64,000 nucleotides of DNA from a virus (IMGVR_UViG_3300022752_005671:123070-187069); one strand, 5' to 3'. Numbered from the stretch's first letter, positions 30,501 through 60,898 are shown. Notes: a model not told the origin generated them from the letters alone. Made by a program: numbers and translations.

Positions 30501-30942
30501 AAGACCAACAAATCCAATTTGGATCAAAGTTTTGACCGATGATGATTCATTAATTCCTGCGTATCAGACTCAAGGATCAGCAGCGTGCGATTTAAGATCT
30601 ACCGATGAAGTCACATTGCCTCCTGGTTCTAGAGTAATCATTGGAACAGGCATTAAGTTAGAAATCCCACGAGGGTTTGGAGCCATGGTGTGTTCTAGAT
30701 CTGGAATGGCTGCAAAGAACGGCATTCAGGTTCTTAATGCTCCAGGGATCATTGACACAGACTACAGAGGAGAAGTAAAAGTAATTCTTCATAACGCAGG
30801 CAAGGAAGAATTTATTATTAAAAAAGGAGATAGGGTTGCACAACTTTTATTTTTCCCAATTTTTCAAGCAATCTTTCAGAAGGCTACAGAAGTTTCAGAG
30901 ACGCATAGAGGTGAGGGCGGATTTGGAAGCACTGGAGTTTGA
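30493..30942 (+). CDS. dut: Trimeric dUTPase
   Basis: SAACDL, RSGMAAK, GIIDTDYRGEV, GDRVAQL, RGEGGFGSTG. Confidence 0.97.
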   Translation: MSERPTNPIWIKVLTDDDSLIPAYQTQGSAACDLRSTDEVTLPPGSRVIIGTGIKLEIPRGFGAMVCSRSGMAAKNGIQVLNAPGIIDTDYRGEVKVILHNAGKEEFIIKKGDRVAQLLFFPIFQAIFQKATEVSETHRGEGGFGSTGV

Positions 30943-36321: not shown

Positions 36322-36981
36322 ATGCCTTCTCAACCCAATAAAGTTGAACTAATTGGTTATTACGGTTCTGATGAAACTCATGCTCTTTCTGCTTGGACTT
36401 CAACGTCAAGAGATTTGACTGAGGATAAGAAAGAAAGAATTCCAAAGCTCCTAAAGATGTTGGCTGAAAATTCTCATGAAACTCCCTTCGAAAAGAGTTC
36501 ACTGCATTTTTTGGTTACATCTGACGTGAGCGCCCACATCCACCTCCTCAAACATCGAATCGGCGTTTCAATCAACGCCGAATCTGCGCGATACAAGGAA
36601 CTAAAGGAAGACAAGTATTATGTTCCCACGGATTGGCCAGCGGAAGAAAAAGAGCTCTACATCGAACACATGGAATCCAGTCTACAGAAGTACCACTCAA
36701 CGTTGGAGAGGCTGGTTCAAAAGGGGATGAGTAGAAAGCGCGCCAAAGAATCTGCACGTCTCTACCTTCCTTATGGAAATCAGATCACGGCTGATGTTAT
36801 GTTTAATTTCCGTAGTTTTGTTCATTTTCTAAGGTTAAGATATTCTGAACATGCTCAAGTTGAAATTAGAGACATTGCAAAACAAATGTTGGATTTAGTT
36901 CATTCAACTGGATCTTTTAATCATACGATGGAAGCATTTGGATTGACGGTTGAAGGAAACCTGAGAGGGCCTTTCACATGA
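36322..36981 (+). CDS. thyX: FAD-dependent thymidylate synthase
   Basis: HETPFE, HLLKHRIGVSINAESARY, KESARLYLP, NFRSFVHFLRLR...HAQVEIR. Confidence 0.93.
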   Translation: MPSQPNKVELIGYYGSDETHALSAWTSTSRDLTEDKKERIPKLLKMLAENSHETPFEKSSLHFLVTSDVSAHIHLLKHRIGVSINAESARYKELKEDKYYVPTDWPAEEKELYIEHMESSLQKYHSTLERLVQKGMSRKRAKESARLYLPYGNQITADVMFNFRSFVHFLRLRYSEHAQVEIRDIAKQMLDLVHSTGSFNHTMEAFGLTVEGNLRGPFT

Positions 36982-37571
36982 GTAAGATAATCGTAATTGA
37001 AGGTCCAGATAGAGTGGGTAAACAGACTCAAACTCGTCTATTAAAAAGAAAACTTGGAGAACGAGGATTTTCTTCAATTGTTATTGAAGTACCAATTAAA
37101 TCTGCAGTAACATATCCAATCATTTATTGGATGCTTCAAAATGGCACGGCAAAAAAGTTTCCAAAAATCTTTCAATGGTTTCAATACATGAATAGAAAGA
37201 TTTTTCAAATGTTTAAATTGCCTCGTCTTGAGGAGGATTACGATTGCATCATAATGGATAGATGGAGTTTATCTACCATCGTATATGGTGCAGCAGAAGG
37301 TGTTCCTCTAGAATATACGATAAAGTTGGCTAGAAAATTGAGAGAACCTGACCACACGATCATTCTTCATGGAAATTCTTACGTTCATGAAGCAGAAGAT
37401 TCATATGAAGCAGATTCTGAACTTCAAAAAAATGTTAGAATCGAGTATTCAAAATGGGCAGCGAACAATCCAAATACGACCACACTTATTGATTGTAGAC
37501 AGGAAAAAAAAGTAATTTCAAAGAAAATTAGAGATGTTTTATATAAAAAAGGAATTTTAGAAAGACCTTAA
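36978..37571 (+). CDS. tmk: Thymidylate kinase
   Basis: IVIEGPDRVGKQTQ P-loop, IMDRWSLSTIVY. Confidence 0.85.
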   Translation: MSKIIVIEGPDRVGKQTQTRLLKRKLGERGFSSIVIEVPIKSAVTYPIIYWMLQNGTAKKFPKIFQWFQYMNRKIFQMFKLPRLEEDYDCIIMDRWSLSTIVYGAAEGVPLEYTIKLARKLREPDHTIILHGNSYVHEAEDSYEADSELQKNVRIEYSKWAANNPNTTTLIDCRQEKKVISKKIRDVLYKKGILERP

Positions 37572-37896: not shown

Positions 37897-37971
37897 ATGA
37901 AATTTGCGTTATTTGTGATATTGTTTTCTATCATCATCATTATGAAGGCTTCAAACACGAAGGACTATTGA
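37897..37971 (+). CDS. Possible 24-aa hydrophobic peptide (MKFALFVILFSIIIIMKASNTKDY)
   Basis: Fills the gap, and its TGA overlaps the next ATG (TGATG); not in the ORF track. Confidence 0.35.
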   Translation: MKFALFVILFSIIIIMKASNTKDY

Positions 37972-38336
37972 TGGATAAGCTTCAAGAAATGTGGGATCAA
38001 CAAAAACAATTTATGGATTTGTTGCGAGAGCAACGCGACTTTCCTCCATTTCCAGTTGATCCAACCTCTAAGTCTGGTCAAAAACTTCTTAAAGGAATTA
38101 CGCATGAATGTATGCATGAACTTTTTGAAGCGAACCAGACATTAAAGAATTCAAAGGATCATCGTGCGACTGATGTAAAAGAGTTTGATAGAGAGCATTA
38201 TGTTGAAGAGCTAGTTGATGCCCTTCATTATTTTTTTGAAATTGCAATTCTTAGCGGTATAACTTTAAATGAACTTCATAATTCATACATGAAAAAAGGT
38301 AAAACTAACGTAGATAGAATTAAAAACGGATATTGA
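37971..38336 (+). CDS. All-alpha NTP pyrophosphatase (dimeric dUTPase / T4 gp56 dCTPase-like)
   Basis: HECMHELFEA...YVEELVDALHYFFE...YMKKGKTNVDRIKNGY pattern. Confidence 0.75.
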   Translation: MDKLQEMWDQQKQFMDLLREQRDFPPFPVDPTSKSGQKLLKGITHECMHELFEANQTLKNSKDHRATDVKEFDREHYVEELVDALHYFFEIAILSGITLNELHNSYMKKGKTNVDRIKNGY

Positions 38337-38445
38337 TAAAAAAAATACTTTTACCCCTTTTCAAAAATTTAATGATGTTTATCATGTCTCCGTAACGATG
38401 GAATGCAACAAATCCATCGACTTTTATAAAAAAGGAGATAGAAAA

Positions 38446-38805
38446 ATGTTGACTAGATACTATGATAGTATTCGCACGCCTGTGTTTAGTTTATTTGATC
38501 CGTTTAAAGTTTTTAATGATTTTGAAACGTCAAGTCTTCAATCTAGATTAGACTCTATTGATGAAGAAGGAATTAAAGTTGAACTTCCAGGTGTTAAAGC
38601 CGCCGACGTTGACGTAACTGTAGAAGGTAGAACTTTAAAAGTTTCAGGTAAATCTAGGCACGGAAAAGAATTTAGCTATGTTTATAATTTGAGATCGACA
38701 GTAGACGAATCAGGAATTATCGCGAAACTTGAGGACGGTCTCTTGTCAATCTCTTTGCCAAAGAAAAAAGAGAGTTCTGCAAGAAAAATTCAAGTTTCTG
38801 GTTAA
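38446..38805 (+). CDS. Small heat shock protein (Hsp20)
   Basis: VELPGVKAADVDVTVEGRTLKVSG...AKLEDGLLSISLPKK; AAGGAG RBS before ATG 38446. Confidence 0.9.
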   Translation: MLTRYYDSIRTPVFSLFDPFKVFNDFETSSLQSRLDSIDEEGIKVELPGVKAADVDVTVEGRTLKVSGKSRHGKEFSYVYNLRSTVDESGIIAKLEDGLLSISLPKKKESSARKIQVSG

Positions 38806-47566: not shown

Positions 47567-49279
47567 ACCTTTGATGGACTCGACTACCCTCAGGAACACA
47601 TCGATTACGTCTTAGAAAATGGAATGGACGCATGGTCGCTAACTGACCATGGACATATGAACGGATTCTGCCATGCATATCTTCATGCAGAAAAGATGAA
47701 GAAATCAGGTAAGAATTTTAAGTTCATTCCTGGCTGCGAAATGTATGTCCATCCTGATCTGAAACAGTGGCAGATTGATCTTGAAAAGTCAAAGGAGAAA
47801 CCGATCAAGGACGAATCCATCATCACGCCGATCACTGCTGTCGTCGACGGAAACGACGAGACGACCGATCTGGGAACAGATGAAGCATCATTGACTATCG
47901 AAAACGAAGATGAGACCAAGTCAGGCAAGTACAACGATCCTGTCAAACGCAGGCATCATTTGGTTGTCCTACCAAAAACTTCAATTGGTCTACAAAGGTT
48001 ATTTCATCTAGTTTCTCGAGGTTATTTGGAGGGTTTCTACAGGTTCCCAAGAGTGGATTATGGGATGTTGAAGGAAGCGGCTAAGGACGGGCATCTAATG
48101 GTTAGCACTGCATGCCTTGGCGGAGCCCTTAGTTATGATGTCTTTTCAAAGCTTCAAAAGATTAAGTTTGACGATCTGAAGCATCAACTTCTTGAAGATG
48201 ATTCATTGTTGGAATCCGTCTTGCTTGAGATGGGCAACACCTATGATAAGCTTGCTGATGCAGTAGGTAGAGACAATGTGACTTTGGAGCTACAATTCAA
48301 TAAGCTTCCAGCACAACACCTTGTCAATCGTGCTCTGATCGAATTTGCAAGACGAAACTCTTTGACGAATCGGTTGGTTGTTACTTGCGATTCGCACTAT
48401 TCTCGTCCTGATAACTGGAAGGAGCGTGAAATCTACAAGAAGCTCGGATGGCTTAACTATCAAAACTTCGATCCGAACATGCTTCCGAAGTCCAAGGATG
48501 ATCTTAAGTGCGAACTCTATCCGAAGAACGCAACACAGGTTTGGGATTCGTATCGATCAACGACAGAAGGCATGGATTTCTATGATGATGATCTAATTTG
48601 TGAAGCCATTGAACGTACTCATGACATCGTCCACAATGAGTTAGGTGACATCCATCCCGGTAAGGAGATGAAGCTGCCTTCATATGTGATTCCAGAAGGA
48701 TCAACTGAAGATAAGGCTCTTGTTGAAGCCTGTAAGAAGGGATTAATCTGGCGTGGGTTGGACGGCAAAACTGATTATATCGAACGCGTCAAGTATGAAC
48801 TATCAATCATTCGTGGAAAGAAGTTCTCTAGGTACTTCCTCACGATGAAGGCAATCATGGACCTTGCTCGTGAACACATGCTGATTGGTCCGGGCCGCGG
48901 ATCTGCAGCTGGTTCTCTTGTTGCATACGTTCTTGGCGTGACAAACCTAGATCCTGTAGAGTATGACCTTTCATTTGAACGGTTTCTCAATCCTCATAGA
49001 TGTTTGAATCCAGAAACTTTAGTAAAAACTGAAAAAAGTTTTAAAAAAATCAAAGATTTAGAAATTGGTGACTTAGTAGTCGGAGGATCTGGATCATTAA
49101 AGAAAGTTAATAACAGGTTTGTTTCAAAAGCAAAAAGAGTTTATCGATTTACGACTGACGAAGGATGCATTGAGTGTTCGGAAAATCATCTATGGATTGT
49201 TATCCGCAATGATAAAAAAATTGAAGTTCAAGCTAAGGAAATTTTGATTACAGATGAATTATTATCTATCGTTAAATAA
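47567..49279 (+). CDS. dnaE: DNA polymerase III alpha, N-terminal half fused to N-intein (ORF track start 47624)
   Basis: LTDHG, GCEMY, HLVVL, TACLGG, TCDSHY, GPGRGSAAGSLVAY, FERFLNPHR, followed by the intein. Confidence 0.93.
   Translation, partial: TFDGLDYPQEHIDYVLENGMDAWSLTDHGHMNGFCHAYLHAEKMKKSGKNFKFIPGCEMYVHPDLKQWQIDLEKSKEKPIKDESIITPITAVVDGNDETTDLGTDEASLTIENEDETKSGKYNDPVKRRHHLVVLPKTSIGLQRLFHLVSRGYLEGFYRFPRVDYGMLKEAAKDGHLMVSTACLGGALSYDVFSKLQKIKFDDLKHQLLEDDSLLESVLLEMGNTYDKLADAVGRDNVTLELQFNKLPAQHLVNRALIEFARRNSLTNRLVVTCDSHYSRPDNWKEREIYKKLGWLNYQNFDPNMLPKSKDDLKCELYPKNATQVWDSYRSTTEGMDFYDDDLICEAIERTHDIVHNELGDIHPGKEMKLPSYVIPEGSTEDKALVEACKKGLIWRGLDGKTDYIERVKYELSIIRGKKFSRYFLTMKAIMDLAREHMLIGPGRGSAAGSLVAYVLGVTNLDPVEYDLSFERFLNPHRCLNPETLVKTEKSFKKIKDLEIGDLVVGGSGSLKKVNNRFVSKAKRVYRFTTDEGCIECSENHLWIVIRNDKKIEVQAKEILITDELLSIVK
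49001..49276 (+). mobile_element. Split intein N-fragment (92 aa)
   Basis: Begins CLNPETLV; has IKDLEIGDLV and block B CSENHLW; ends at a stop codon. Confidence 0.9.
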
Positions 49280-49287: not shown

Positions 49288-50223
49288 ATGAAGAGAATTG
49301 AGAAAACTTGTGAATATTGCAAAAAGATTTTTTATGTAGAATACGTTGTTAACGGATCTGGTTCTGCAGGTTCAGCAAGAAAGAAATACTGCAGTGTAAA
49401 ATGCAAAAAAGCCTGGTACAAAATTCCTGAAAACGGATCTAAACAAAAAGTTGAATGCAAGATATGCGGTAAAGAATTTTATCTTCCACATTCACAAGCA
49501 AAAAACCGTGTGACATGCTCAAAAAAATGTTATGCAAAGCACATATCATCTGTCAACACACGGCATGCAAAAATTCAAAAACAATGCAATAACTGTCATA
49601 AACATTTTGAGATAAATGAAAATAGTACTCAAAAATTTTGTTCTCCTGATTGTTTTTCAAAAAGTCTTTATGATAGAAAAGATGTTTTTTGCGAAGTTTG
49701 CAACTCTAAACTAACAGTAAAAAAATCTGCAACGACTCGTTTTTGTAATAAAATTTGCTCAAGAAAAGGTCAATCATTAGGATTAATAAAGTCTCATACA
49801 AATGGAAGAACAGGGTGGAGGGTTGACATACAAGATTCTCCTTATTTTAAAAGTTCTCTTGAAGCAGATTACGCAAGGTATTGCATTTATCTAAACATTC
49901 GTTTTGAATATGAAAAAAAAGTTTTTGAAACAGAAGTAAACGGGAAGAAACGATTTTATACCCCCGATTTTTATTTACCAGATTCAGATGAATTTATCGA
50001 ATTAAAAGGTGTTCGAGAAAGTGAAAATCTATTCTCAAAAAAGTTAAATTCAAATTCAGCGGCTAGAGAAAGTTTAAATTCTACAAACACAAAAATAAAA
50101 GTTGTATACATGAACGATTTTTATTCAATGTTGAGATCATCTGATCTCTATGATAAAATCCCAAATTTAGAAAATAAAGATTATGGAAGAACAGCTCATC
50201 TCATTAAAACGCACAAAGATTAA
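49288..50223 (+). mobile_element. Free-standing endonuclease (four CxxC/CxxxC zinc-finger repeats + PD-(D/E)xK domain) between the intein halves
   Basis: Repeats such as CEYCKKIF..YCSVKC; FKSSLEA..FEYE..YTPDFYLP..FIELKG; AT-rich relative to dnaE. Confidence 0.82.
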
Positions 50224-50338
50224 TTCAATTGAGATCGTTGATCTAGAAGATGAAATCGAATTAATTGACATCGAAGTTGACGATGATCACACATTTTTTG
50301 TTTCAGACAAAAATGAAGAATGGTTGTTAACTCATAAT
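50183..50338 (+). mobile_element. Split intein C-fragment (52 aa)
   Basis: LIDIEVDDDHTFFV...LLTHN followed by Ser+1 at 50339. Confidence 0.9.
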
Positions 50339-52420
50339 TCAGGTGCCCCTGATATCGATTCTGATATTTCTGATCGAGACAAGCTTATTGAACTTCTACG
50401 TGAGAACTTTGGTAATAATAACGTCATTCCGATTTCCAACTACAACACATTTAAGTTGAAGAGCCTTATTAAGGACATTGCTCGCTTCTATAACATTCCA
50501 TTCGAAGAAGTTAATGCTGCTCTAGCACCAGTTGAGGATGATGTTAAGAAAGAAGTCTTCAAGCCTGGTGTCGATAAGAACCTTTTCGTGTTGACGTATG
50601 AAGACGCGATGAAGTATTCTAAGTCCATGCAAGATTTCGTTGCTGCACATCCTGAAGTTGCAGAACCCATTGAGATTCTTTTCAAGCAGAATCGTTCCTT
50701 AGGTCGCCACGCCGGTGGCGTTATCGTGTCTGAAGACATTGCTGAACGTATGCCACTCATCCTAGCAAAGGGAGAGCCTCAGACCCCTTGGGTCGAGGGC
50801 ATGCACTACAAGCATCTTGAGGAGTTTGGGTGGATCAAGTTTGATCTACTCGGTCTCGAAACGTTACGCATCATCGAACGTTGCATTTACTTAATCCTAC
50901 AACGACGTGAAGGTGTTTCCAATCCGACATTTCAAGACATCAAGGCATGGTTCGACAAGAACATGGATCCAAAGAACATTGATCTTAATGATCAACGGGT
51001 CTATGAGTACGTCTACCATGAAGGGCGTTTTGCCGGCGTCTTCCAATGTACTCAACCAGGTGCTCAGCGACTCTTCACCAAGGCGAAGCCGCGCAGCATC
51101 ATCGATATTGCTACTTTGACCTCAATCTATCGCCCAGGTCCACTGGCAGCGAACGTCGATAAGATCTATATTGGTGCCAAGAATGAACCTGAAAAGATTG
51201 ATTATCAGCATCCTCTCATTAAGAAGGTGCTTGAACCGACATACGGTTGCATTATTTTCCAGGAGCAAACCATGAAACTTTGCTCAGTCGTGGCGGGATT
51301 CCCTGAGGCAGAGACGGATACAATTCGTCGCAACATCATGAAACGTTCAGCATCTAAGAAGGACGCAGCGGCCGCTGACGCGAAGAAAGCAAAAGAAGAT
51401 TTTGTCGCCGGAGCAATGAAGAATGGCGTACCCAATCATGTTGCTGATGAACTATATGAAAAGATCCTCTTTTTCTCAGGTTACGGGTTTAACGCATCTC
51501 ACGCCGTGTCATATGCTATCGATTCTTACTATTGTGCATGGCTCCTTACTTACTTTGAAGAGGAATGGTTATGCGCATATCTCGAATCGATGTCAGGAAA
51601 CGATGAGAAGCGAGCAAAGGCTTTCTCAGAGGTAAAGGCTCTTGGATACAAGATCGTCAATATTGATGTCAATTATGCGACGAAGAGTTGGACGATTCTT
51701 GAAGGCAAGCGATTTATGCCAAGCTTCCTTTCATGTAAGGGTGTCGGTGAAGCCGCTGTAGATGAAATCATCGAAAATCGTCCATATAAATCCGTGGAGG
51801 ATATGCTGTGGAATGAGGATGGTACCTGGAAGCATTCCAAGTTTAATAAACGCGCGCTTGAAGCCTTGATAGGAATCAAGGCGTTTGATTCGTTAGACTG
51901 TATCGGTATGGACCGAACATTCGCTAGTTATAAACAGATGCACCAGATCTTGATCGATCACAACAATGAAATCAAGAAGCATACGAAGAAGAATCCCCTT
52001 GCAGGAATGGAGGCATTCCGTAACTTTCTCATTGAAACGAAGGATGAGCCTGAATGGACTCGAGCAGAGATGGTTGATAATAGCATTAAATATCTTGGAT
52101 CATTTAATGCGGCGATGCTGATGCCCGATGATATTCTTAGAAAGTTAGAGACTAAAGGTGTTAAGTCAGTCGACGATCTTTCTGAAAGCGACATCTATTG
52201 GTTTATCGTTTCAGATACAAAACCCAAAAAGACTAAAACAGGAAAGAACTATTTGCTTTTGACCATCACCGGTCTCGGTGGACAAAATCATAGATTGTTT
52301 TGTTGGGGATGGGATGGAAACAGAGAAATTCCAAAATACAGCGTATGCCTCTCAGAAATCACAGTCGATGGATACGGTAATAAAACTTTCATGAGTAAGA
52401 TTAAAGTTTTGGATTCATGA
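50183..52420 (+). CDS. dnaE: C-intein fused to DNA polymerase III alpha C-terminal half
   Basis: SGAPDIDSD catalytic motif, RSLGRHAGG, KFDLLGLETL, GVFQ, YRPGP, YGCIIFQEQ, GYGFNASHAVSY, KGVG. Confidence 0.95.
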   Translation: MEEQLISLKRTKINSIEIVDLEDEIELIDIEVDDDHTFFVSDKNEEWLLTHNSGAPDIDSDISDRDKLIELLRENFGNNNVIPISNYNTFKLKSLIKDIARFYNIPFEEVNAALAPVEDDVKKEVFKPGVDKNLFVLTYEDAMKYSKSMQDFVAAHPEVAEPIEILFKQNRSLGRHAGGVIVSEDIAERMPLILAKGEPQTPWVEGMHYKHLEEFGWIKFDLLGLETLRIIERCIYLILQRREGVSNPTFQDIKAWFDKNMDPKNIDLNDQRVYEYVYHEGRFAGVFQCTQPGAQRLFTKAKPRSIIDIATLTSIYRPGPLAANVDKIYIGAKNEPEKIDYQHPLIKKVLEPTYGCIIFQEQTMKLCSVVAGFPEAETDTIRRNIMKRSASKKDAAAADAKKAKEDFVAGAMKNGVPNHVADELYEKILFFSGYGFNASHAVSYAIDSYYCAWLLTYFEEEWLCAYLESMSGNDEKRAKAFSEVKALGYKIVNIDVNYATKSWTILEGKRFMPSFLSCKGVGEAAVDEIIENRPYKSVEDMLWNEDGTWKHSKFNKRALEALIGIKAFDSLDCIGMDRTFASYKQMHQILIDHNNEIKKHTKKNPLAGMEAFRNFLIETKDEPEWTRAEMVDNSIKYLGSFNAAMLMPDDILRKLETKGVKSVDDLSESDIYWFIVSDTKPKKTKTGKNYLLLTITGLGGQNHRLFCWGWDGNREIPKYSVCLSEITVDGYGNKTFMSKIKVLDS

Positions 52421-52429
52421 GGTACTATT

Positions 52430-52954
52430 ATGGGTATGGTCATTTTATTTGATGGCTCAGACAAGGTCGGTAAGACCGAAATGGCCAAAGAATTATCAAG
52501 AAGATTGAATATTCCTTATTTTAAGAATGAATCTGAATGGAACGCTTTTTCAAACGATCCTTCATATTTTAAAAATGCTTTACGATACGGAGATCCATAT
52601 TTTTATAATTTTCTCAAAAAAACTGGAACTTCGACAATTTTAGATCGTTCATATCCATCTGAATGGGTTTATTCTAAAGTTTATGATCGACAAACCGATG
52701 ATGAAGCGTTAAATTACATTGATTCTTTGGCTTCATCCATTGGAGTAAAAATCATCATTCCTTATAGGACTTCGTATGAAGGTTTTCATGATGATATGCA
52801 TGATATTGATTCTCGACAAATGCAAATAATTTCTGACAAATATGCGGATTTTATAAAATGGACGAAGTGCGAAACTCTGCATCTATGTGTAGATTCTGAA
52901 AACCTTGATTGGGAAATGCAAACCATTCTAGAATTTATTAATAAAAAAGGATAG
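52430..52954 (+). CDS. Second deoxynucleoside monophosphate kinase-like protein
   Basis: ILFDGSDKVGKT P-loop, ILDRSYPSEWVY; first gene of the modification cluster. Confidence 0.75.
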   Translation: MGMVILFDGSDKVGKTEMAKELSRRLNIPYFKNESEWNAFSNDPSYFKNALRYGDPYFYNFLKKTGTSTILDRSYPSEWVYSKVYDRQTDDEALNYIDSLASSIGVKIIIPYRTSYEGFHDDMHDIDSRQMQIISDKYADFIKWTKCETLHLCVDSENLDWEMQTILEFINKKG

Positions 52955-52955
52955 T

Positions 52956-53981
52956 ATGAAAATAGGAATCAGTTATTGGGGATTTTGTGAGTCATTTGAA
53001 TCATCAAAAGAGGCCAAAACGCCGGATGGTCATCGTTACGGTAGGCCCATTATGGTTGATTCTTTAATTAGCAGAGGTCATGAGGTATACGCGCTACAAC
53101 AAAAACGAGAAGCAATTTCATACCCTGGGTTGAAGTATGATGAAGGGTTTCCTGATTTGGATGTCTTATTTGTTGAATGGCGTTGGAAAACTTATAAAAA
53201 TTCTGGACCAGATAAATTTGAGCCAGACTTTGATCGACAATTTGCGTTGTTGTCAAAGTATCATGGTAAAATCCCTGTTGTGATTTGGGATTGTGATTAC
53301 AAAGTTACTCATGTCGATGAGATGATGTGGTCAGAGGCCATCATCGCTGATCCAGCATTTGAACCAAGACACCTTAGTAGAAAAAGAGAAAGATTGATGT
53401 TTTGGACGGACTGGAAAAAGTTGATGTCAGTTAATTCAACTTCATTTGAATACGGATATATTGGTAACAATTATGAAAGACCTCAAGCTTTTGAGAGATA
53501 TTATTCGTTACCTTCCGCAGGATTACGCGCTTTAGGTATTCAAACGACTGTCCACGGGAATTGGATGGAAGTGTCTCCTGAAAGGGAATCTCCTAAAATC
53601 TTAATTTCTTCTCATACGAATGTTGCTTTTGCTCCACGATTAAATTTTTATGAATCGATGAAGCGTTTAAATTCTTTTATTTGCACGTCTCATATTACAA
53701 AGCCAGAATATGCTCAACGAGGGTTCGCATCTCCTCGTTATGTTGAGAATATTGTTAGCAACGTCCCAGCTCTTGTTCCTCAAGAGTTCTTAAAATCCGA
53801 TTTGCTTGGGAAAGATTGGATCGTTGGTGGATCTGGATCTGTCGTAGAAAAAGTTAAATTAATTTCTTCCATGACAATCGAAGAAAGAACAGCTCTAATT
53901 TTAGAACAAGAAAATAATTTAAAGTCAAGCGGTGTATTTTCTATTGATGGTGTTGTAGATTTTCTAGAGTCACTTAAGTGA
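52956..53981 (+). CDS. GT-B glycosyltransferase resembling T4 DNA beta-glucosyltransferase
   Basis: MKIGI start; LLSKYHGKIPVVIWD; YGYIGN; HITKPEYAQRGFASPRYVENIVSNVPALVPQEF parallels the T4 BGT segment IIGDKNYNDNFITLRVWETMASDAVMLIDEEF (recalled from memory, not aligned computationally). Confidence 0.65.
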   Translation: MKIGISYWGFCESFESSKEAKTPDGHRYGRPIMVDSLISRGHEVYALQQKREAISYPGLKYDEGFPDLDVLFVEWRWKTYKNSGPDKFEPDFDRQFALLSKYHGKIPVVIWDCDYKVTHVDEMMWSEAIIADPAFEPRHLSRKRERLMFWTDWKKLMSVNSTSFEYGYIGNNYERPQAFERYYSLPSAGLRALGIQTTVHGNWMEVSPERESPKILISSHTNVAFAPRLNFYESMKRLNSFICTSHITKPEYAQRGFASPRYVENIVSNVPALVPQEFLKSDLLGKDWIVGGSGSVVEKVKLISSMTIEERTALILEQENNLKSSGVFSIDGVVDFLESLK

Positions 53982-53988
53982 GGAAAAG

Positions 53989-54978
53989 ATGAAAGTATTA
54001 ATTACAGGTGTTGCAGGTCTTCTCGGCGCGAATTTTTCTCGATATCTTTTGCAAAAAGGATACAAGGTTGTAGGAATCGACGACCTTAGCGGAGGATATG
54101 CGGATTCAGTTCATAAAGACGTAACATTTTATGAACAAGATCTTTGGGATAGAGTTGCAGTTGAGAATATTTTTTCATCTGAAAAGCCTGATTACGTCTT
54201 TCATTTTGCAGCATATGCCGCCGAAGGATTGAGCCCATTTATCAGAAATTACAATTATACAAACAACGTTCTTTCTTCTGCAAACGTAATCAATGCATGC
54301 GTAAATAACAACGTAAAGAAAGTGATTTTTACTTCATCAATGGCTGTATATGGTGTAGGAAAACCGCCGTTTACAGAAGATCAGCTACCAACACCAGAAG
54401 ATCCATATGGAATTGCAAAGTATGCAGTTGAAATGGATTTAAAACTTGCACATGAGATGTTTGGTCTGAGATATAGCATTGTTCGACCCCACAACGTGGT
54501 CGGCATTTATCAAAACATTTGGGATCGATACAGAAATGTCATTGGCATTTGGATTCGCAAAGCCATGAATAATGAACCTCTATCTATTTTTGGCGATGGA
54601 ACTCAAGTTAGAGCATTCTCTGATATTAAGTTTTATATGGAGCCTTTTGAGAAGCTCATGACATCTTATGACGGAGAAATCTTTAATATTGGCGCAGACA
54701 AATATTACACGATTAATGAAGCTGCAGATGTAGTAATTGACGTAGCAAAAGAATTAGGGATTAATGCAAAGAAAGTTCATTTAGAAAAGAGAAATGAAGT
54801 TCATACAGCTTATTGCGATCATACCAAAGCTCATAATCTTTTAGGATTTAATGATCAAACAGATCTTCGAGAAACAGTTTTGAAAATGTTTAAGTGGGCG
54901 TTAGAACAACCAAATCGCCCTACAAAAACGATGGACTACGAAATTGAGAAAAACATGTATTCATTCTGGAAGAAATGA
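53989..54978 (+). CDS. NAD-dependent nucleotide-sugar epimerase/dehydratase (extended SDR)
   Basis: TGVAGLLG, HFAA, TSSMAVYG, PYGIAK, RPHNVVG. Confidence 0.92.
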   Translation: MKVLITGVAGLLGANFSRYLLQKGYKVVGIDDLSGGYADSVHKDVTFYEQDLWDRVAVENIFSSEKPDYVFHFAAYAAEGLSPFIRNYNYTNNVLSSANVINACVNNNVKKVIFTSSMAVYGVGKPPFTEDQLPTPEDPYGIAKYAVEMDLKLAHEMFGLRYSIVRPHNVVGIYQNIWDRYRNVIGIWIRKAMNNEPLSIFGDGTQVRAFSDIKFYMEPFEKLMTSYDGEIFNIGADKYYTINEAADVVIDVAKELGINAKKVHLEKRNEVHTAYCDHTKAHNLLGFNDQTDLRETVLKMFKWALEQPNRPTKTMDYEIEKNMYSFWKK

Positions 54979-54981
54979 CTT

Positions 54982-55764
54982 ATGACAAGTACATCATTGA
55001 CATTTCCTGAGAAAATTTCTGATAGAGAAAAATTTATTTTTGATCAAGTTATGTCAGGAAACTTTGAAGCTTCTTGGTCATCACTTGAATACGCTGTTTC
55101 AGGAAAAAAAGTTAAATTAAACGTGATGTCCGACGCTCTAAAGGTCGGAGGCATTAGAGTGAATGTTTCAGCTACTTTGCAGCAGCAGTTAGCTGACATT
55201 TTTGATGCATCATTACTAACTGCACAAGTTGCTGATTTAATGTATGTTAATGCAAATCATGTTTTAAATCCATCTCCGCAGACAATTTCAACGACTGTCG
55301 CTTCCATGATTTCTCATGATAGTAAAGTCACTAAACAATTGGGCACATATTCAAATGGGATTGTTTCAACTGTTGGAAAACATTGGATTTTGGACAAAAA
55401 GATAGATCAATCTCCAAACCGCGCTTGTAATTATGGATGGCATTTTACTGGATCTAGCTTTCAAGGAATAAATGGATTTCCTTGCGCTTCAACATTTAAA
55501 AGTGTAAACGGGAAACAAGCTAAGGTTATTCAACCTAACGCAGTAGCCCATGATTCAAGGCATAGCGATTACTCACAAATTTGTCAACTGGTTTCACAGC
55601 AATGTTGGATTGATAATGTAGAATATAGATTTTCTGATATTCTTCAAAATCCTTCTTTTTGTGATCTCATCAACCATAATGGAGTTTTGAAAAACATTAG
55701 ACAACCTGGGGTTCAAAAAGTATCAGGACAAATTGTTTTATTTCCAGTCGTAATTACTTCTTGA
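54982..55764 (+). CDS. Hypothetical protein (NYGWH ... HDSRHSDYSQ family)
   Basis: 260-aa ORF; conserved-looking GKHW, NYGWHF and HSDYSQICQLV motifs; function unclear. Confidence 0.65.
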   Translation: MTSTSLTFPEKISDREKFIFDQVMSGNFEASWSSLEYAVSGKKVKLNVMSDALKVGGIRVNVSATLQQQLADIFDASLLTAQVADLMYVNANHVLNPSPQTISTTVASMISHDSKVTKQLGTYSNGIVSTVGKHWILDKKIDQSPNRACNYGWHFTGSSFQGINGFPCASTFKSVNGKQAKVIQPNAVAHDSRHSDYSQICQLVSQQCWIDNVEYRFSDILQNPSFCDLINHNGVLKNIRQPGVQKVSGQIVLFPVVITS

Positions 55765-55771
55765 GGTTAAC

Positions 55772-55981
55772 ATGCCGACTTACGAATATCAATGTGAAGC
55801 TTGCAAACATTTATTGGAAACCTTTCAATCAATAAAAGATGATCCTTTGACTACTTGCCCCAATTGTAATTCAGAGACAATGAAACGCTTAATTTCTGCA
55901 GGTGGAGGTTTTACTTTGAAAGGTGGAGGTTGGTATAAAGATCTTTACGCTTCAAATAAGTCTTCTATTTCTTCTGAATAG
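55772..55981 (+). CDS. FmdB-family zinc-ribbon protein
   Basis: MPTYEYQCEAC...CPNC..MKRLIS..GFTLKGGGWY. Confidence 0.9.
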   Translation: MPTYEYQCEACKHLLETFQSIKDDPLTTCPNCNSETMKRLISAGGGFTLKGGGWYKDLYASNKSSISSE

Positions 55982-56690
55982 AAGGTTGTTTTTTTGTGAT
56001 GTTCCTACTTGTTCTAGCTGCAACATGACTTGGCTTTATTAAGTTATGCTCATCTTCATTTTGTTTTGATTCAAATGTAGGTTTAATTTCGCCGGTTTCA
56101 CAATTTAAAATTATATTATATCCCCCATGTGCAAGCGTAAGAGGAGCTTTTATTGTAGATAGATAATCATATCTTGCTTCATTTATCATTTCTTTATCAA
56201 ACCAAGGATCTAGAACAAAATTTGAAACGCTAACGTTTTTTCCATTGATGTTTATTTCATAAGAGCTATTTTCTACTGGATCGCAAACTTCAACTGCAAC
56301 AAAAGTTTCGTCCCCTCTGTGCGACCAGAGATTTATAAAAGGATTATAAAAAGTTTCAAGAATTTCATGAGAAAGAACGACAGAAACCGACCTAGTTCCA
56401 GTTAAAATTGTTCCTCCATTGTTTAGGATAGGATTTACAAACACTCTACCCCAAACTTTTCCATCAGGATCTTGCGAATGATAACCTAATGCAGTAGCGT
56501 GATCGCTATCATCCATTATGACCATCGGAAATCCATCATTGCCATCAATTTTTATTTCCCATTCAATCCTTCCAAGAAGCGGAGCAGCATGATCTTTTAA
56601 TTGAACTCTGCAAGCTTCAACCATTAGTTCTAAATCTTCTTTTGATATCTTAGATGATTTGTTTATTACGTTGAATGTTTTCATTATCAT
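55965..56690 (-). CDS. Putative zincin-like metallopeptidase
   Basis: LGYH, SHEILE, EVCDPVE, VSNFV motifs. The start is probably M(IM)KTF at 56690 or 56684, not 56936. Confidence 0.55.
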   Translation of the reverse strand: MIMKTFNVINKSSKISKEDLELMVEACRVQLKDHAAPLLGRIEWEIKIDGNDGFPMVIMDDSDHATALGYHSQDPDGKVWGRVFVNPILNNGGTILTGTRSVSVVLSHEILETFYNPFINLWSHRGDETFVAVEVCDPVENSSYEININGKNVSVSNFVLDPWFDKEMINEARYDYLSTIKAPLTLAHGGYNIILNCETGEIKPTFESKQNEDEHNLIKPSHVAARTSRNITKKQPSIQKK

Positions 56691-56739
56691 AATTAATGAA
56701 CTTTTTATGTTTGCGCAGTAATATTTTATTGAAGTTTTT

Positions 56740-57702
56740 ATGAAAAAAGTTTTATTAACAGGCGCCGCAGGTTTTATAGGAAGCAATATTGCTCGTAAAT
56801 TGGAAGAATTAAATTTTGATTTTGATATTGTGGATGATTTGTCAAATGGGTTTATTGAGTTTTTGCCTGAAAACATCAAATCAAAATTGATTCTTGACGA
56901 TTTTTCTTCCGAAGCAATCTTAGAAAAGATACACAATAAAGAGTATGATTATGTAATGCACATCGCTGCTGTTCCAAGAGTAAGTTACTCTGTAGAGTAT
57001 CCCATAAAAACAAATGATATCAACGTTTCAAAGACTTTAAGGTTGATTGAAGCTTGTAAGAATAATGTAAAGAGAATAGTTTTTGCATCGTCGTCATCAG
57101 TTTATGGAAATACTGATGTACTTCCCACAACAATTTCACAAAATAAAAACCCTCAATCTCCATATGCTTTACAAAAATCAATCATAGAAGATTATCTAAG
57201 ACTGTATAGCTCTTTATACGGATTAGATTCAGTTTGCCTTAGGTTTTTTAACGTCTTTGGACCAAATCAACTTGGGGGTTCTCCTTATGCAACAGTCGTT
57301 GGATCTTGGCTCACTGCAATCAAAAGTGGAACCTCAATGAGATCAGACGGAGATGGAACACAGTCTAGAGATATGTGTTACGTAGACAACGTCGTTGATG
57401 CATGCATCAAAGGAATTCAAGTCGATCATGCTTTGAAAGCAGAATGTTTAAATATTGCATGTGGAGACAGGACAACAAATAAAGAAATTCTTCAATACCT
57501 TTTGACCAAATATCCAAATGCTAAGTACCATGATGCACCATGGAGACCAGGAGATGTCATGCATACTCTTGCAGACATTTCAAAAACAGAGGAAATTTTA
57601 GGATACAAACCGTTGGTGAGATTTTGGGAAGGTCTAGATTTAACCATAAAGTGGTATGAAGAAAATTGGGATATGATTAAAACTTTGATTCTTAAGGCAT
57701 AA
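56740..57702 (+). CDS. NAD-dependent epimerase (UDP-hexose/HexNAc 4-epimerase-like)
   Basis: TGAAGFIGS, HIAA, ASSSSVYG, SPYALQK, LRFFNVFGP, DGTQSRD..YVDNVV, RPGDV. Confidence 0.92.
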   Translation: MKKVLLTGAAGFIGSNIARKLEELNFDFDIVDDLSNGFIEFLPENIKSKLILDDFSSEAILEKIHNKEYDYVMHIAAVPRVSYSVEYPIKTNDINVSKTLRLIEACKNNVKRIVFASSSSVYGNTDVLPTTISQNKNPQSPYALQKSIIEDYLRLYSSLYGLDSVCLRFFNVFGPNQLGGSPYATVVGSWLTAIKSGTSMRSDGDGTQSRDMCYVDNVVDACIKGIQVDHALKAECLNIACGDRTTNKEILQYLLTKYPNAKYHDAPWRPGDVMHTLADISKTEEILGYKPLVRFWEGLDLTIKWYEENWDMIKTLILKA

Positions 57703-57703
57703 T

Positions 57704-58705
57704 ATGAAAGCATATAATAACTTCACAGAAGCTTATGTTGACATCATAAAAGATGTCTATTCTAATCCAGAATTTACTTCATCACCTAGAGGTATGAAGG
57801 TTAAAGAAATTTTAGGATATCAATTTAAAATTCTAAATCCTAGAAACAGAATTCCTTATGTTCCTGGTAGAGATTTATCAGTTCATTACATGATTGCTGA
57901 ACTTTTATGGTATTTGAGTGGAAATAATTCCACTGAATGGATTAGCAATTATTCTGCGTTTTGGTCTAAAATTTCTGATGACGGTAGCACAGCTAATAGC
58001 GCTTATGGTGCAAGAATTTTTAAACCTCATGATAGAATTGCATCGACAATCAAGCAAGATTGGACGCAATGGGATTATGTTATCAATGAACTAAAATTTG
58101 ATCCTGATTCAAGACGTGCAGTTGTTCATATTCGTTCCCCACAAGATTCATTGTTAGCACAGCTTGATGTTCCATGTACATTATCATTACAGTTTTTCTT
58201 GCGAAATGATAAAGTACACATGGTTGTTTCTATGAGATCTTCAGATGTAATTCTTGGTTTGGCTTATGACGTACCAGCTTTTACTATTTTTCAAGAACTG
58301 CTCGCTGTTCAACTAACAGAAGAATTAGGTCGTCCAATAGGTCTAGGATCTTATACACACCTCAGCGCATCTCTCCATGTGTACGAGAGGCATTTTAAAA
58401 TGGTCGAAAAAATACTTGATGAAGATATGAAGCAAGATTATCGAAACATTCCTGAGATGCCTCTGATGCCTAGTGATCTTCCTCTTGAGGATCTAATGGC
58501 TGTTGAAAAAGATCTAAGAAAATCTAAAACTTCAAGTTCTTTGATCAAAACTATAGAGAATTTTGGTTTTTCTAATGACTATTGGAAAGATTGGTGTAAA
58601 GTTTTGGCATCTCACAAAGCACTGAAATTAGATGATCAAAAAACGTCAAATGATCTTCTTTCATCAACAATTTTTGAAGGGTATAGGTATTTTACGAAGC
58701 CATGA
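57704..58705 (+). CDS. Thymidylate-synthase-fold enzyme with dCMP-type active site (dCMP hydroxymethylase-like)
   Basis: ELLWYLSG, AYGARI, DSRRAV, DVPCTLSLQF, MRSSDVILGLAYD with Asp (58268-58270) at the position of E. coli ThyA Asn177, SLHVYERH. Confidence 0.85.
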   Translation: MKAYNNFTEAYVDIIKDVYSNPEFTSSPRGMKVKEILGYQFKILNPRNRIPYVPGRDLSVHYMIAELLWYLSGNNSTEWISNYSAFWSKISDDGSTANSAYGARIFKPHDRIASTIKQDWTQWDYVINELKFDPDSRRAVVHIRSPQDSLLAQLDVPCTLSLQFFLRNDKVHMVVSMRSSDVILGLAYDVPAFTIFQELLAVQLTEELGRPIGLGSYTHLSASLHVYERHFKMVEKILDEDMKQDYRNIPEMPLMPSDLPLEDLMAVEKDLRKSKTSSSLIKTIENFGFSNDYWKDWCKVLASHKALKLDDQKTSNDLLSSTIFEGYRYFTKP

Positions 58706-59280
58706 CCACAACATTTACTGTATTTTGCGGGCCGATGTTTTCTGCAAAAACTACTTCTTTATTATCTGTTCTTGATAGATTCAAGTATCAAGGTAAAAAG
58801 ATTGCTGTTTTTAAACCGAAGTTAGATGACAGGTATAGCGAATCTGACGTTTCTACTCATGGGGGATGGAAAATGCCGGCAATTTGCGTAAAGTTAGGAA
58901 CTGATATCTTAGAGCATCTTGCTAATATGGAAGAAAACCCTCAAGTAATTGCTGTTGATGAAGCCTTTATGATACCAGGAGTAGCAGATGTATTGGTTTG
59001 GTTATATAGAAGTGGGTATTCAGTTGTGGTTTCTAGCTTGGATTTATCTGCAACTGGAAAACCATTCTTAGAAGTTGAAAAAATGTTGCCTTGGGCAACG
59101 AAGGTAGAAAAATTAAGCGCAGTTTGTACAGTATGTAATAAAGACGCTTTTTACACGTATAAGAAACAAACAGGTGGAGATGAAATAGAAGTTGGAGGAA
59201 ATGAACTATATGAGCCGAGATGCTCTCGTTGCCATCCTTCAATCTTAAATCGAGATGGAGTTTATTCTACAAGAGGTTGA
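58702..59280 (+). CDS. tdk: Thymidine kinase
   Basis: GPMFSAKTT, FKPKLDDRY, VDEAF, KLSAVCTVC, GGNELYEPRCSRC. Confidence 0.93.
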   Translation: MTTTFTVFCGPMFSAKTTSLLSVLDRFKYQGKKIAVFKPKLDDRYSESDVSTHGGWKMPAICVKLGTDILEHLANMEENPQVIAVDEAFMIPGVADVLVWLYRSGYSVVVSSLDLSATGKPFLEVEKMLPWATKVEKLSAVCTVCNKDAFYTYKKQTGGDEIEVGGNELYEPRCSRCHPSILNRDGVYSTRG

Positions 59281-59282
59281 TT

Positions 59283-59759
59283 ATGTCAAATTCTTTGGAT
59301 CGACATGTAAAAAAGTTGTCAGTTTTTATGAAAATGTGTAATGAATTATCTTCATTGTCATATGACGACAAATACAAAGTTGCTTCAATCATAATCACTA
59401 AAGACTATAGAGAAGTATGCGCAATAGGATATAACGGAGGATATAAGGGAGGTCCTAATAAGAGATCTTCTTTAGACCATGGTAAATCTGGTTTTCTTCA
59501 CGCGGAAGAAAATGCATTGTTTCATTTATGCAAACCATATGAATTAAGAAATGATCTTTTAATGTTATGCACACATAAACCATGTTCGATGTGTGCAAGG
59601 AGGATTGTTAATAGTGGGATCAAGGATATTGTGTATTATGCTGATTATACTGATGCAGAAGCCGCTACCGATCATATTTTTGAGATCACTGGAACTTCTT
59701 GCACTAAATTTGATGATATTTTGCAAAACCCAGCTGCTATCATGAATATTCGAGCGTGA
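59283..59759 (+). CDS. dCMP deaminase family protein
   Basis: AIGYNG, LHAEENAL, THKPCSMCARRIVNSGI. Confidence 0.9.
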   Translation: MSNSLDRHVKKLSVFMKMCNELSSLSYDDKYKVASIIITKDYREVCAIGYNGGYKGGPNKRSSLDHGKSGFLHAEENALFHLCKPYELRNDLLMLCTHKPCSMCARRIVNSGIKDIVYYADYTDAEAATDHIFEITGTSCTKFDDILQNPAAIMNIRA

Positions 59760-59787: not shown

Positions 59788-60159
59788 ATGAAGCAAAAGC
59801 TTACTGGAAATTACATTATCAATCTTATGAGAGAAGAATGGCAAAAAAAAGTTAATTCTTTACTCTCAGAAACTCCCTCGCAAAAGAAAAAGCCACGAGG
59901 GTTAAAGATGCAAGTCGACGTCGATGGAGATGGAAGTAAAGAGAACGTGATTGATGTTGGTTTGAAGGTACAAAAAAAGATGCCAGATGACAAACGCATA
60001 AATGTTAAAGGTGACCCCACTTCTGGATTAGTTTATACTGTAGTTTCAGTGAACGATCAGGATAAAACGATTACTTTAAGCAGACCAGATTCTGGTAACG
60101 GCGAGAAAACAATAGTTATAACAAAACAAGCTTTTGAGAACGAATATCAAAGAAAGTGA
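59788..60159 (+). CDS. Hypothetical protein (leader NLMREE..LLSE)
   Basis: GGAG RBS; preceded by ATAATTA at 59763. Confidence 0.65.
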   Translation: MKQKLTGNYIINLMREEWQKKVNSLLSETPSQKKKPRGLKMQVDVDGDGSKENVIDVGLKVQKKMPDDKRINVKGDPTSGLVYTVVSVNDQDKTITLSRPDSGNGEKTIVITKQAFENEYQRK

Positions 60160-60169
60160 TGATGCTATC

Positions 60170-60898
60170 ATGAACATTAAATCTTTAGGCGTAGACTTAG
60201 ATAATATCCTCAAGGATGCAGTAAAAAATTCAATTAAAGCACAAACTAAAGAATTGCCTACTGCTGAAAAACTAGATGAAGCTTATGTTGCTGAGCCTAA
60301 GGTTTTTAAGCAAGTTTCTGAATTTTCTACTCAAAAAACAAAAGACGCACATGACACCTTATATAAAGGATATGTCGAATCTTTAAACAAAATTTCCGCA
60401 GAGCTAGATTCTGCAGATCGAAATGCAGCTGATTCTAAACATTCTCAATATCGTTCTTTAAAACTCGATGAAGTTTATAATTTAAATGCGACATGGCTTC
60501 ATGAGCTATATTTTGCAAATGCATTTGATCCTCACTCTGAAATCACCATGGATTCATTATCCTATATGAGACTTGAAAGAGATTTCGGAACGTTTGAAGA
60601 TTGGCAAAAAGATTTCATGGCTTGCGCATTATCTTCAGGGAGTGGATGGGCCGTGTGCGGATATCATCTCTTTTTGCAAAGATACGTCAATACTGTAGTT
60701 AGCCACCACAGCGGAGACGTCATGCTTGGATTATATCCAGTTATCGTTGTTGACATGTGGGAACATGCTTATTATAGAGATTACTTGAATGACAAAAAGA
60801 GTCATCTTGTGGCAAGAATGAGAGAATTTGATTGGGATGTGATTGAGGAAAGAGTAAAGAAAGCTGAGTTAATTTCTCAAGCCATAAAGGTGAAGTGA
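60170..60898 (+). CDS. Fe/Mn superoxide dismutase-like protein with N-terminal extension
   Basis: AHDTLYKGYV, LHELYFAN, DFGTFEDW, SGSGW, VVDMWEHAYYRDY. Confidence 0.88.
   Translation: MNIKSLGVDLDNILKDAVKNSIKAQTKELPTAEKLDEAYVAEPKVFKQVSEFSTQKTKDAHDTLYKGYVESLNKISAELDSADRNAADSKHSQYRSLKLDEVYNLNATWLHELYFANAFDPHSEITMDSLSYMRLERDFGTFEDWQKDFMACALSSGSGWAVCGYHLFLQRYVNTVVSHHSGDVMLGLYPVIVVDMWEHAYYRDYLNDKKSHLVARMREFDWDVIEERVKKAELISQAIKVK

Follow-up and report, generated by a model that had tools for sequence, protein, structure and literature searches.

A probable pathway for cytosine hydroxymethylation and DNA glycosylation in the dnaE region of an uncultured aquatic jumbo phage

T-even phages make glucosylated 5-hydroxymethylcytosine (5hmC) with gp56, gp42, gp1, cd, tk and alpha- and beta-glucosyltransferases. 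The same logic and gene complement are found in the 64,000-nucleotide stretch of viral DNA analysed here (IMGVR_UViG_3300022752_005671:123070-187069, hereafter the window). Directly after the polymerase gene dnaE, a cluster at positions 52430-58705 encodes a small kinase, a glycosyltransferase (GT), two sugar-nucleotide epimerases and a homolog of the thymidylate synthase ThyA. The existence of this cluster is confirmed: all these genes lie on the + strand where the original prediction, made from the sequence of this stretch, had placed them, and ThyX is present elsewhere in the window. We think it probable that they form a T4-style pathway, in which cytosine is replaced by 5hmC before replication and then glycosylated with a sugar from the phage's own epimerases. 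Its likely role is to shield phage DNA against restriction enzymes and CRISPR nucleases. The window comprises the final 64 kb of an IMG/VR viral contig of 187 kb, whose CheckV completeness is about 52%; the contig is therefore a fragment of the genome of an uncultured aquatic jumbo (giant) phage. The phage DnaE is less than 30% identical to DnaE of any GenBank phage, and a DNA-level search of GenBank phages with the module gave a sole match of 48 bp. Related contigs of 200-280 kb were found in metaviromes.

The likeness to T4 includes an identical pattern of hydroxymethylase active-site residues, a pyrophosphohydrolase of the gp56 family, and T4 beta-glucosyltransferase (BGT) as the best structural match of the GT. 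In the annotated T4 record b-gt, 42 and 43 are neighbours, and GT and predicted hydroxymethylase likewise lie beside the polymerase here. However, the hydroxymethylase of this phage is MilA-like, has 333 aa and is only 28% identical to gp42. Its kinase resembles Tmk and deoxynucleoside kinases (dNK) and not gp1, and by sequence its GT cannot be assigned to the BGT family. Moreover, this phage has two sugar-nucleotide epimerases of its own, replicates with a DnaE polymerase and makes dTMP via ThyX.

Other described systems come close in different respects. Phage GTs of 'subclass II' need a partner epimerase to put hexose (Hex), N-acetylhexosamine (HexNAc) or hexuronic acid (HexA) on 5hmC (Pyle, Lund, O'Toole and Saleh; bioRxiv 2023.12.21.572611; Cell Rep 2024), and GT-B/ThyA-homolog neighbourhoods were noted in a metagenome survey (Pyle et al., bioRxiv 2023.12.21.572611). 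The adjacent GT-epimerase pairing of those clusters is also seen here. In the pathways tested by Pyle et al., 5hmC is produced post-replicatively and site-specifically by a C5-methyltransferase and a TET-like dioxygenase, whereas here a ThyA homolog is predicted to act before replication, which would allow genome-wide replacement. The original prediction of a modified base unlike T4 glucose or RB69-type arabinose was thus overstated in its novelty, as epimerase-dependent 5hmC GTs for hexose, HexNAc and hexuronic acid had already been demonstrated and the GT-B/ThyA-homolog neighbourhoods already noted. What is new here is the variant gene set; the concept of sugar-coated 5hmC was already established.

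The 5-hydroxycytosine (5hoC) systems of RB69 gp48, DLP3 gp80 and Rhizobium phage RL38J1 (PMC13326640) share with this locus an N177D ThyA homolog with an acidic residue at position 143, a cognate deoxynucleoside monophosphate (dNMP) kinase, and DNA GTs accompanied by phage enzymes for nucleoside diphosphate (NDP)-sugars. They differ in carrying D169N, which is absent here and in the linked homologs examined; therefore, the predicted acceptor is 5hmC, with an oxymethyl link, and not 5hoC, with an ether link. The 5hoC systems of the Pootjesviridae include a UDP-galactose mutase (PMC13326640), and mutases also flank the GT family in two remote loci described below (L031 and L032). Finally, MilA, the CMP 5-hydroxymethylase of mildiomycin biosynthesis (PDB 5jnh, 5b6d), is the closest solved relative of the ThyA homolog, and both enzymes have Asp at the N177 and L143 positions of ThyA. 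They differ in that Ala176 and Lys133 of MilA are Ser and Arg here, as in enzymes with deoxyribose substrates.

In the pathway that we propose, the gp56-family pyrophosphohydrolase would convert dCTP to dCMP, which the MilA-like ThyA homolog would hydroxymethylate at C5 with methylene-tetrahydrofolate. The adjacent small kinase would phosphorylate the resulting 5-hydroxymethyl-dCMP (hm-dCMP), and a host NDP kinase would then yield hm-dCTP for incorporation by the phage polymerase. The supply of dTTP would be kept apart by ThyX, a canonical Tmk, dCMP deaminase, thymidine kinase (TK) and dUTPase. After replication, the GT, a 341-aa GT-B enzyme, would move a sugar from a UDP-sugar onto the hydroxymethyl group of the 5hmC bases of the DNA. 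The donor would come from host UDP-glucose (UDP-Glc) or UDP-N-acetylglucosamine (UDP-GlcNAc), converted by one or both of the phage's 4-epimerases. The steps before replication are based on family assignments and diagnostic residues, and the GT step on fold and conserved linkage. The most tentative part of the scheme is that the sugar would be of the galactose or N-acetylgalactosamine (GalNAc) type and not glucose. The core of what had been predicted, cytosine C5 modification followed by DNA glycosylation with a phage-made sugar, is supported, while sugar identity and complete replacement of cytosine are unproven.

The main evidence for function is gene linkage. Kinase, GT and ThyA homolog are adjacent in all 15 viral loci with enough flank to judge, despite rearrangements, and usually lie beside dnaE; these loci all come from related lineages, and in them the small kinase always adjoins the GT. 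Gene order differs in loci L011-L018 (in L018 it is GT, ThyA homolog, DnaE, with overlapping stops and starts), and the adjacency persists down to 28% GT identity. Because it survives rearrangements, the cluster is more than chance. Members of the GT family were found beside ThyA homologs of hydroxymethylase signature in 15/15 related viral loci and in four of the five informative remote loci (L026, L027, L030, L031 and L032; the contigs of L028 and L029 are too short to judge). This tight and repeated linkage bears out the proposed tie between the GT and cytosine-modifying ThyA homologs.

The remote GT members, with profile E-values of 4e-51 to 1.5e-26 (5.6e-35 for L031), are found in varied settings. 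L026 has the order Tmk-GT-ThyA-PolB, plus a gp56-type dUTPase_2 gene and a uracil-DNA glycosylase (UDG), and L030 reads GT-x-UDG-ThyA. In L031, DnaE is followed by GT, UDP-galactopyranose mutase, a Tmk-like gene, x and ThyA, and in L032 GT and mutase precede ThyA, a MazG-like gene, dCMP deaminase and DnaE. All four ThyA homologs linked to remote GTs carry L143D, D169 and N177D.

Locus L016 is informative in another way. Here the MilA-like enzyme has given way to one of the T4 type, which shares 54% identity with the experimentally characterised gp42, while the GT and the kinase (each 45% identical) remain. This displacement argues for functional equivalence of the two types of ThyA homolog, and for GT and kinase acting with their product. 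In the same region (L016:12299-14845) the T4-type dCMP hydroxymethylase open reading frame (ORF) has only 216 aa, a HAD_SAK_2 phosphatase lies between kinase and hydroxymethylase, and a GIY-YIG/NUMOD homing endonuclease (14012-14845) is found about 0.5 kb downstream of the hydroxymethylase ORF, past a minus-strand ORF. The hydroxymethylase gene of L016 may be interrupted.

The GT (52956-53981, + strand), a candidate DNA 5hmC glycosyltransferase, belongs to an uncharacterised, metagenome-only family. It has no Pfam, PHROG or NCBIfam match, and its family has no members among 50,697 GenBank phage records. Among 1.84 billion representatives the family forms 373 clusters at the 50% identity level. 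An AlphaFold model built on an alignment of 38 metagenomic homologs reached a pLDDT (predicted local distance difference test) of 94.1. The predicted model has a GT-B fold of the BGT type, being compact, two-domained, of 341 aa and superposable on BGT. T4 BGT is its best structural match, with a lead of only about 1 Z unit over ordinary GT4 enzymes. Foldseek returned a generic GT-B/GT4 list from PDB, with T4 BGT and alpha-glucosyltransferase (AGT) at ranks 22-38; SP-15 GTs and DNA alpha-GTs were among its BFVD matches, which do not discriminate.

At the sequence level the relation to BGT is much fainter. None of the 38 GT members matches PF09198, the T4 BGT family (CAZy GT63), at E-values up to 1; T4 BGT itself matches phrog_7922 at 4e-187. 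A profile search of the GT against PDB sequences gave nothing meaningful. With hhalign, GT and BGT align in a single block of 79 C-terminal columns (probability 24%), in which the invariant GT residues R261 and E264 face the donor-binding R269 and E272 of BGT. Global hhalign failed, and a relaxed local run gave an N-domain alignment of zero confidence; the invariant D112 and D114, which follow strand 4, are only topological candidates for the counterpart of the BGT catalytic base Asp100. The 'segments paralleling T4 BGT' of the original prediction therefore claimed too much. What is shared is the fold and this one weak profile alignment, and not membership of the sequence family.

Alternatively, the phage DNA could contain plain or otherwise modified 5hmC, with the GT and the epimerases acting on a virion protein, the host envelope or a small molecule. 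The structural neighbours of the GT are mostly small-molecule or lipid GT4 enzymes such as BshA, PimA and TarM, nearly tied with BGT; 21 of the 38 family members match the generic PF13524, and the remote member in L027 lacks a nearby ThyA homolog. We nevertheless consider this explanation unlikely. Module genes are spaced by 1-8 bp or overlap, except around a minus-strand ORF, and the GT itself lies 1-8 bp from its neighbours inside a nucleotide-metabolism and replication operon. Furthermore, in at least four divergent lineages with different polymerases the GT is accompanied by a ThyA homolog of hydroxymethylase signature and by a kinase of the dNMP type, and the pairing survives the displacement by a gp42-type enzyme in L016.

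The two epimerases plausibly supply the donor sugar. Both are of the short-chain dehydrogenase/reductase (SDR) sugar-nucleotide 4-epimerase type, with Ser-Tyr-Lys motifs (SSMAVYG and YGIAK in epimerase 1, SSSSVYG and YALQK in epimerase 2) and without the dehydratase Asp-Glu pair. Epimerase 1 (53989-54978, + strand; PF01370, E 3e-49) is GalE-like, its best PDB match being the Thermotoga UDP-glucose 4-epimerase 4zrm (E 1e-45). Epimerase 2 (56740-57702, + strand; PF01370, E 1e-47) resembles the N-acetylhexosamine group. In PDB, 6dnt (E 2e-58) and WbgU (E 2e-52) match it best, and its nearest relatives are an archaeal epimerase together with WbgU, WbpP and TviC (E 2e-58 to 8e-44). WbgU, WbpP and TviC act on N-acetylated UDP-sugars. 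The epimerases score 141 and 153.5 bits against the GalE model TIGR01179 (cut-off 262 bits), and the score against the TviC model NF011728 is 158.8 bits (cut-off 760).

Epimerase 1 belongs to the module in nearer relatives only, plus L016 and L017 at about 35% identity, while L011-L015 and L017 keep epimerase 2 in the module. Its place beside the GT is occupied by a UDP-galactopyranose mutase in L031 and L032. This retention and this replacement suggest donors of the galactose series. The original proposal of a sugar such as galactose or GalNAc is not established by these data, and both epimerases fall far below the equivalog cut-offs. The GLF genes of the two remote loci (L031:7146-8270 and L032:7095-8111) overlap the stop of the GT-family members, a hint that the DNA of those phages may contain galactofuranosyl-hmC.

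The phage studied here has a second set of sugar genes. A co-directional glycan island of 26 kb (G000:C1 ~41000-68000, 55-82 kb upstream of the window; loci L024 and L025) encodes a UDP-glucose dehydrogenase (Ugd), a dozen glycosyltransferases (GT2, GT1), SDR epimerases, a DegT aminotransferase and a carbamoyltransferase. GT2 genes are present in five of the five relatives examined, so the co-occurrence of the island does not discriminate between a DNA target and a virion target.

With such an island in the genome, 5hmC might be made, incorporated and glycosylated with host UDP-glucose as in T4, while the epimerases serve the island or rebalance the UDP-sugar pool. This would agree with T4 BGT being the best structural match of the GT, and with L018, L026 and L030, where GT and ThyA homolog occur with no epimerase in the stretch seen; a separate glycan island would also use unusual sugars. 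However, a type 2 epimerase or a UDP-galactopyranose mutase directly adjoins the GT in most lineages, the island has SDR epimerases of its own, and the published subclass II GTs are strictly dependent on the adjacent epimerase (Pyle et al.). Glycosylation with plain host glucose is, in our opinion, likewise rather improbable. At the opposite extreme, the sugar added by the GT to 5hmC could be only a primer, which the island would extend on DNA into a complex, partly aminated or carbamoylated oligosaccharide. The chance of this is slim. If it were true, the phage genome would carry glycan chains far larger than mono- to trisaccharides, which are, to our knowledge, the only DNA glycans so far.

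The 5hmC acceptor itself is predicted from the ThyA-fold enzyme (57704-58705, + strand; PF00303, E 4e-31), which has a C-terminal helical extension and contains the motif MRSSDVILGLAYD. In PDB its best match is MilA (E 1e-43, over residues 4-313, C-terminal extension included), followed by ThyA (1e-22) and T4 gp42 (6e-15). When the enzyme was aligned with E. coli ThyA and T4 gp42 (from annotated records) and with its counterparts in related loci, it showed, in ThyA numbering, E58, R126/R127, L143D, C146, T147, S167, D169, N177D, H207 and Y209. The residues that mark the ThyA fold (catalytic Cys146, Glu58, Arg126/127, His207 and Tyr209) are all present and conserved, and the pattern L143D, C146, T147, S167, D169, N177D, H207, Y209 is identical to that of T4 gp42. 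This pattern is invariant in the 19 relatives examined (15 viral and four remote loci). The Asp at the N177 site that had been noticed earlier is therefore real and conserved; it is D189 in the enzyme's own numbering, while D155 aligns with L143 (Asp also in T4 gp42 and MilA) and D181 with D169.

These positions are diagnostic. N177D selects dCMP (Lee et al., NAR 2026, PMC13326640), an acidic residue at 143 (L143D/E) marks a hydroxymethylated rather than a methylated product, and flavin-dependent 5-hydroxy-dCMP synthases, those of RB69 and DLP3 among them, are recognised by D169N (Lee et al., PMC13326640). D169N is absent here, as D181 is kept in this enzyme and in every linked homolog examined. 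The ribose preference of MilA rests on Ala176 and Lys133, and the A176S/K133R double mutant loses CMP activity (Zhao et al., Sci Rep 2016, PMC5175136). At these positions the phage enzyme has its own Ser179 and Arg137 in place of the ribose marks, which would indicate a preference for deoxyribose (PMC5175136). By these residues the enzyme is predicted to be a 5hm-dCMP synthase, which would set it apart from thymidylate synthases, from dCMP methylases and 5-hydroxylases, and from enzymes acting on CMP. Of the three products first proposed, hmC, 5-hydroxy-C and 5mC, the gp42-type residues favour hmC. Methylation is disfavoured because of L143D, and 5-hydroxylation because D169 is retained.

A synthase making 5-hydroxy-dCMP, like those of RB69 and DLP3, or 5-methyl-dCMP, like that of Xp12, with an ether-linked sugar or none, is accordingly very improbable. 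These products were alternatives within the original prediction, the chemistry of the ThyA superfamily is plastic, and the enzymes tested to define the diagnostic residues are limited in number. However, all tested 5hodCMP synthases have D169N, position 143 is Asp as in hydroxymethylases and not hydrophobic as in methylases, and the whole pattern equals that of T4 gp42 and MilA. Ordinary nucleotide metabolism, in which the ThyA homolog would be a second thymidylate synthase among unrelated auxiliary genes, has in its favour only the name 'thymidylate synthase' that public sources give to the homologs, and it is extremely improbable in view of the Asp at N177, NCBIfam ThyA equivalog scores far under the cut-offs (94.6 vs 327 bits), the ThyX already present and the conserved gene linkage.

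The genes for dTMP synthesis fit with cytosine modification by the ThyA homolog. ThyX lies at 36322-36981 (+ strand; PF02511, E 1.6e-36), directly followed by a canonical thymidylate kinase (36978-37571, + strand; PF02223, E 5e-15). Because ThyX and this true Tmk sit elsewhere in the window and cover the supply of dTMP and dTDP, neither the ThyA-fold enzyme, as the original prediction had argued from ThyX, nor the second kinase is needed for that supply, and both are available to act on cytosine. The ThyA homolog is thus very probably a cytosine-specific C5 modifier free of dTMP duty. The second kinase is the small P-loop protein at 52430-52954 (+ strand, 174 aa), a Tmk/dNK-like candidate hm-dCMP kinase. 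It matches phrog_761 (thymidylate kinase, E 5e-11) and, by profile, the SPbeta YorR kinase-like protein (2axp, E 6e-5), and falls into viral Tmk/dNK-type clusters by language-model features; its counterpart in remote loci matches PF02223. Its similarity to kinases is weak, and it is a candidate functional analogue of T4 gp1. In the window ThyX is paired with Tmk, and the small kinase with the ThyA homolog; two such pairs of synthase and kinase fit the assignment of the 174-aa protein as a dedicated kinase for hm-dCMP.

A candidate for the first step, missing from the original prediction, was found at 37968-38336 (+ strand). It is an all-alpha NTP pyrophosphohydrolase of the T4 gp56 family, with borderline matches to PF08761 (E 1.2e-5, at the cut-off) and PF01503 (E 0.002). 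The ORF matches phrog_12184 (E 5e-14) and phrog_173 (E 9e-10), the same PHROGs that T4 gp56 matches, and by BLASTP it is 36% identical to gp56 over the C-terminal 42 aa (E 2e-6). It is conserved in 5/5 related records. Because a trimeric dUTPase (30460-30942) is already present, this ORF is a reasonable dCTPase candidate. MazG (PF03819) was also considered as the dCTPase; neither this record nor five related ones contain it, and the gp56-type family was found instead. An Hsp20-like small heat-shock gene (38398-38805; phrog_432, E 4.5e-8) adjoins the gp56-like gene.

Several observations weigh against the pathway that we favour, with 5hmC glycosylated by the GT from a phage-made donor. The 15 viral loci all come from related lineages and owe their synteny in part to common descent, and no ThyA homolog lies within 6 kb of the GT in the remote locus L027. 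By sequence the GT falls outside the T4 BGT family (GT63, PF09198, phrog_7922), the structural lead of BGT in the predicted model is slight, and we infer the 5hmC acceptor purely from gene context and linkage. Regarding the sugar, the module of L011-L015 lacks epimerase 1, both epimerases score so far under the NCBIfam equivalog cut-offs that sequence does not fix their substrates, and the many GTs and SDRs of the 26-kb glycan island mean that the epimerases could serve another glycan. Finally, the contig covers only about half of the genome.

If the proposed pathway is correct, the T4 paradigm of pre-replicative hmC followed by a sugar extends to DnaE-replicating aquatic jumbo phages without cultured relatives. 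A large metagenome-only GT family is hereby defined, whose members are accompanied by dCMP hydroxymethylases and by sugar-nucleotide enzymes of more than one kind (4-epimerases, UDP-galactopyranose mutase). These GTs are candidates for new 5hmC-labelling reagents. Whether a given restriction, CRISPR or type IV system can stop a phage depends on such modified bases, and the practical gain is a short, testable set of enzymes.

Further genes of nucleotide metabolism border the module. A thymidine kinase (58702-59280, + strand; PF00265, E 1e-39), whose start overlaps the hydroxymethylase stop by 4 bp, is conserved beside it. It is followed by a dCMP deaminase (59220-59759, + strand; PF00383, E 4.5e-17; phrog_174, E 1.6e-25), the analogue of T4 cd. 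In relatives the deaminase alignment starts just past the TK stop, and the true start of this gene is probably downstream of 59280.

Three genes interposed in the span, which the original prediction omitted, were found only in the close relatives L002-L010 and are absent from more distant modules; they are probably outside the pathway. The first (54982-55764, + strand, 260 aa; model pLDDT 90.7) encodes a protein with weak C-type-lectin/FGE-like (formylglycine-generating enzyme) matches. Foldseek gave no PDB match for it, its structural relatives being viral hypothetical proteins and a bacterial cluster with a type IX secretion tail. Its invariant residues H112, H134, C149, H154, H190, D191, H194, D196, C201 and C208 suggest a metal site. 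As a pathway enzyme it was rejected on these weak matches, the lack of a Foldseek match, its secreted bacterial look-alikes and its absence from distant modules. The second gene encodes an FmdB Zn ribbon (55772-55981, + strand). The third is the only minus-strand gene of the block (~55965-56690, about 241 aa from an internal ATG), with a HEILE motif, 65-95% identity in close relatives and no Pfam or PHROG match.

Upstream of the module dnaE itself is split into two halves (47624-49279 and 50183-52420, + strand), with a 311-aa HNH endonuclease ORF in between, and the module follows directly. The N-fragment of DnaE has about 90 additional C-terminal residues and the C-fragment about 50 additional N-terminal residues. 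The two halves align in a single continuous, uninserted frame in L009-L015 and L017, while L002 has a different insert. The split would fit a mobile (split-)intein or homing element.

A 254-aa protein encoded past the nucleotide module (60134-60898) carries Fe/Mn superoxide dismutase domains (PF02777, E 5e-20). The superoxide dismutase gene is an unusual phage cargo, and it is kept just downstream of the module in most related loci (33-89% identity).

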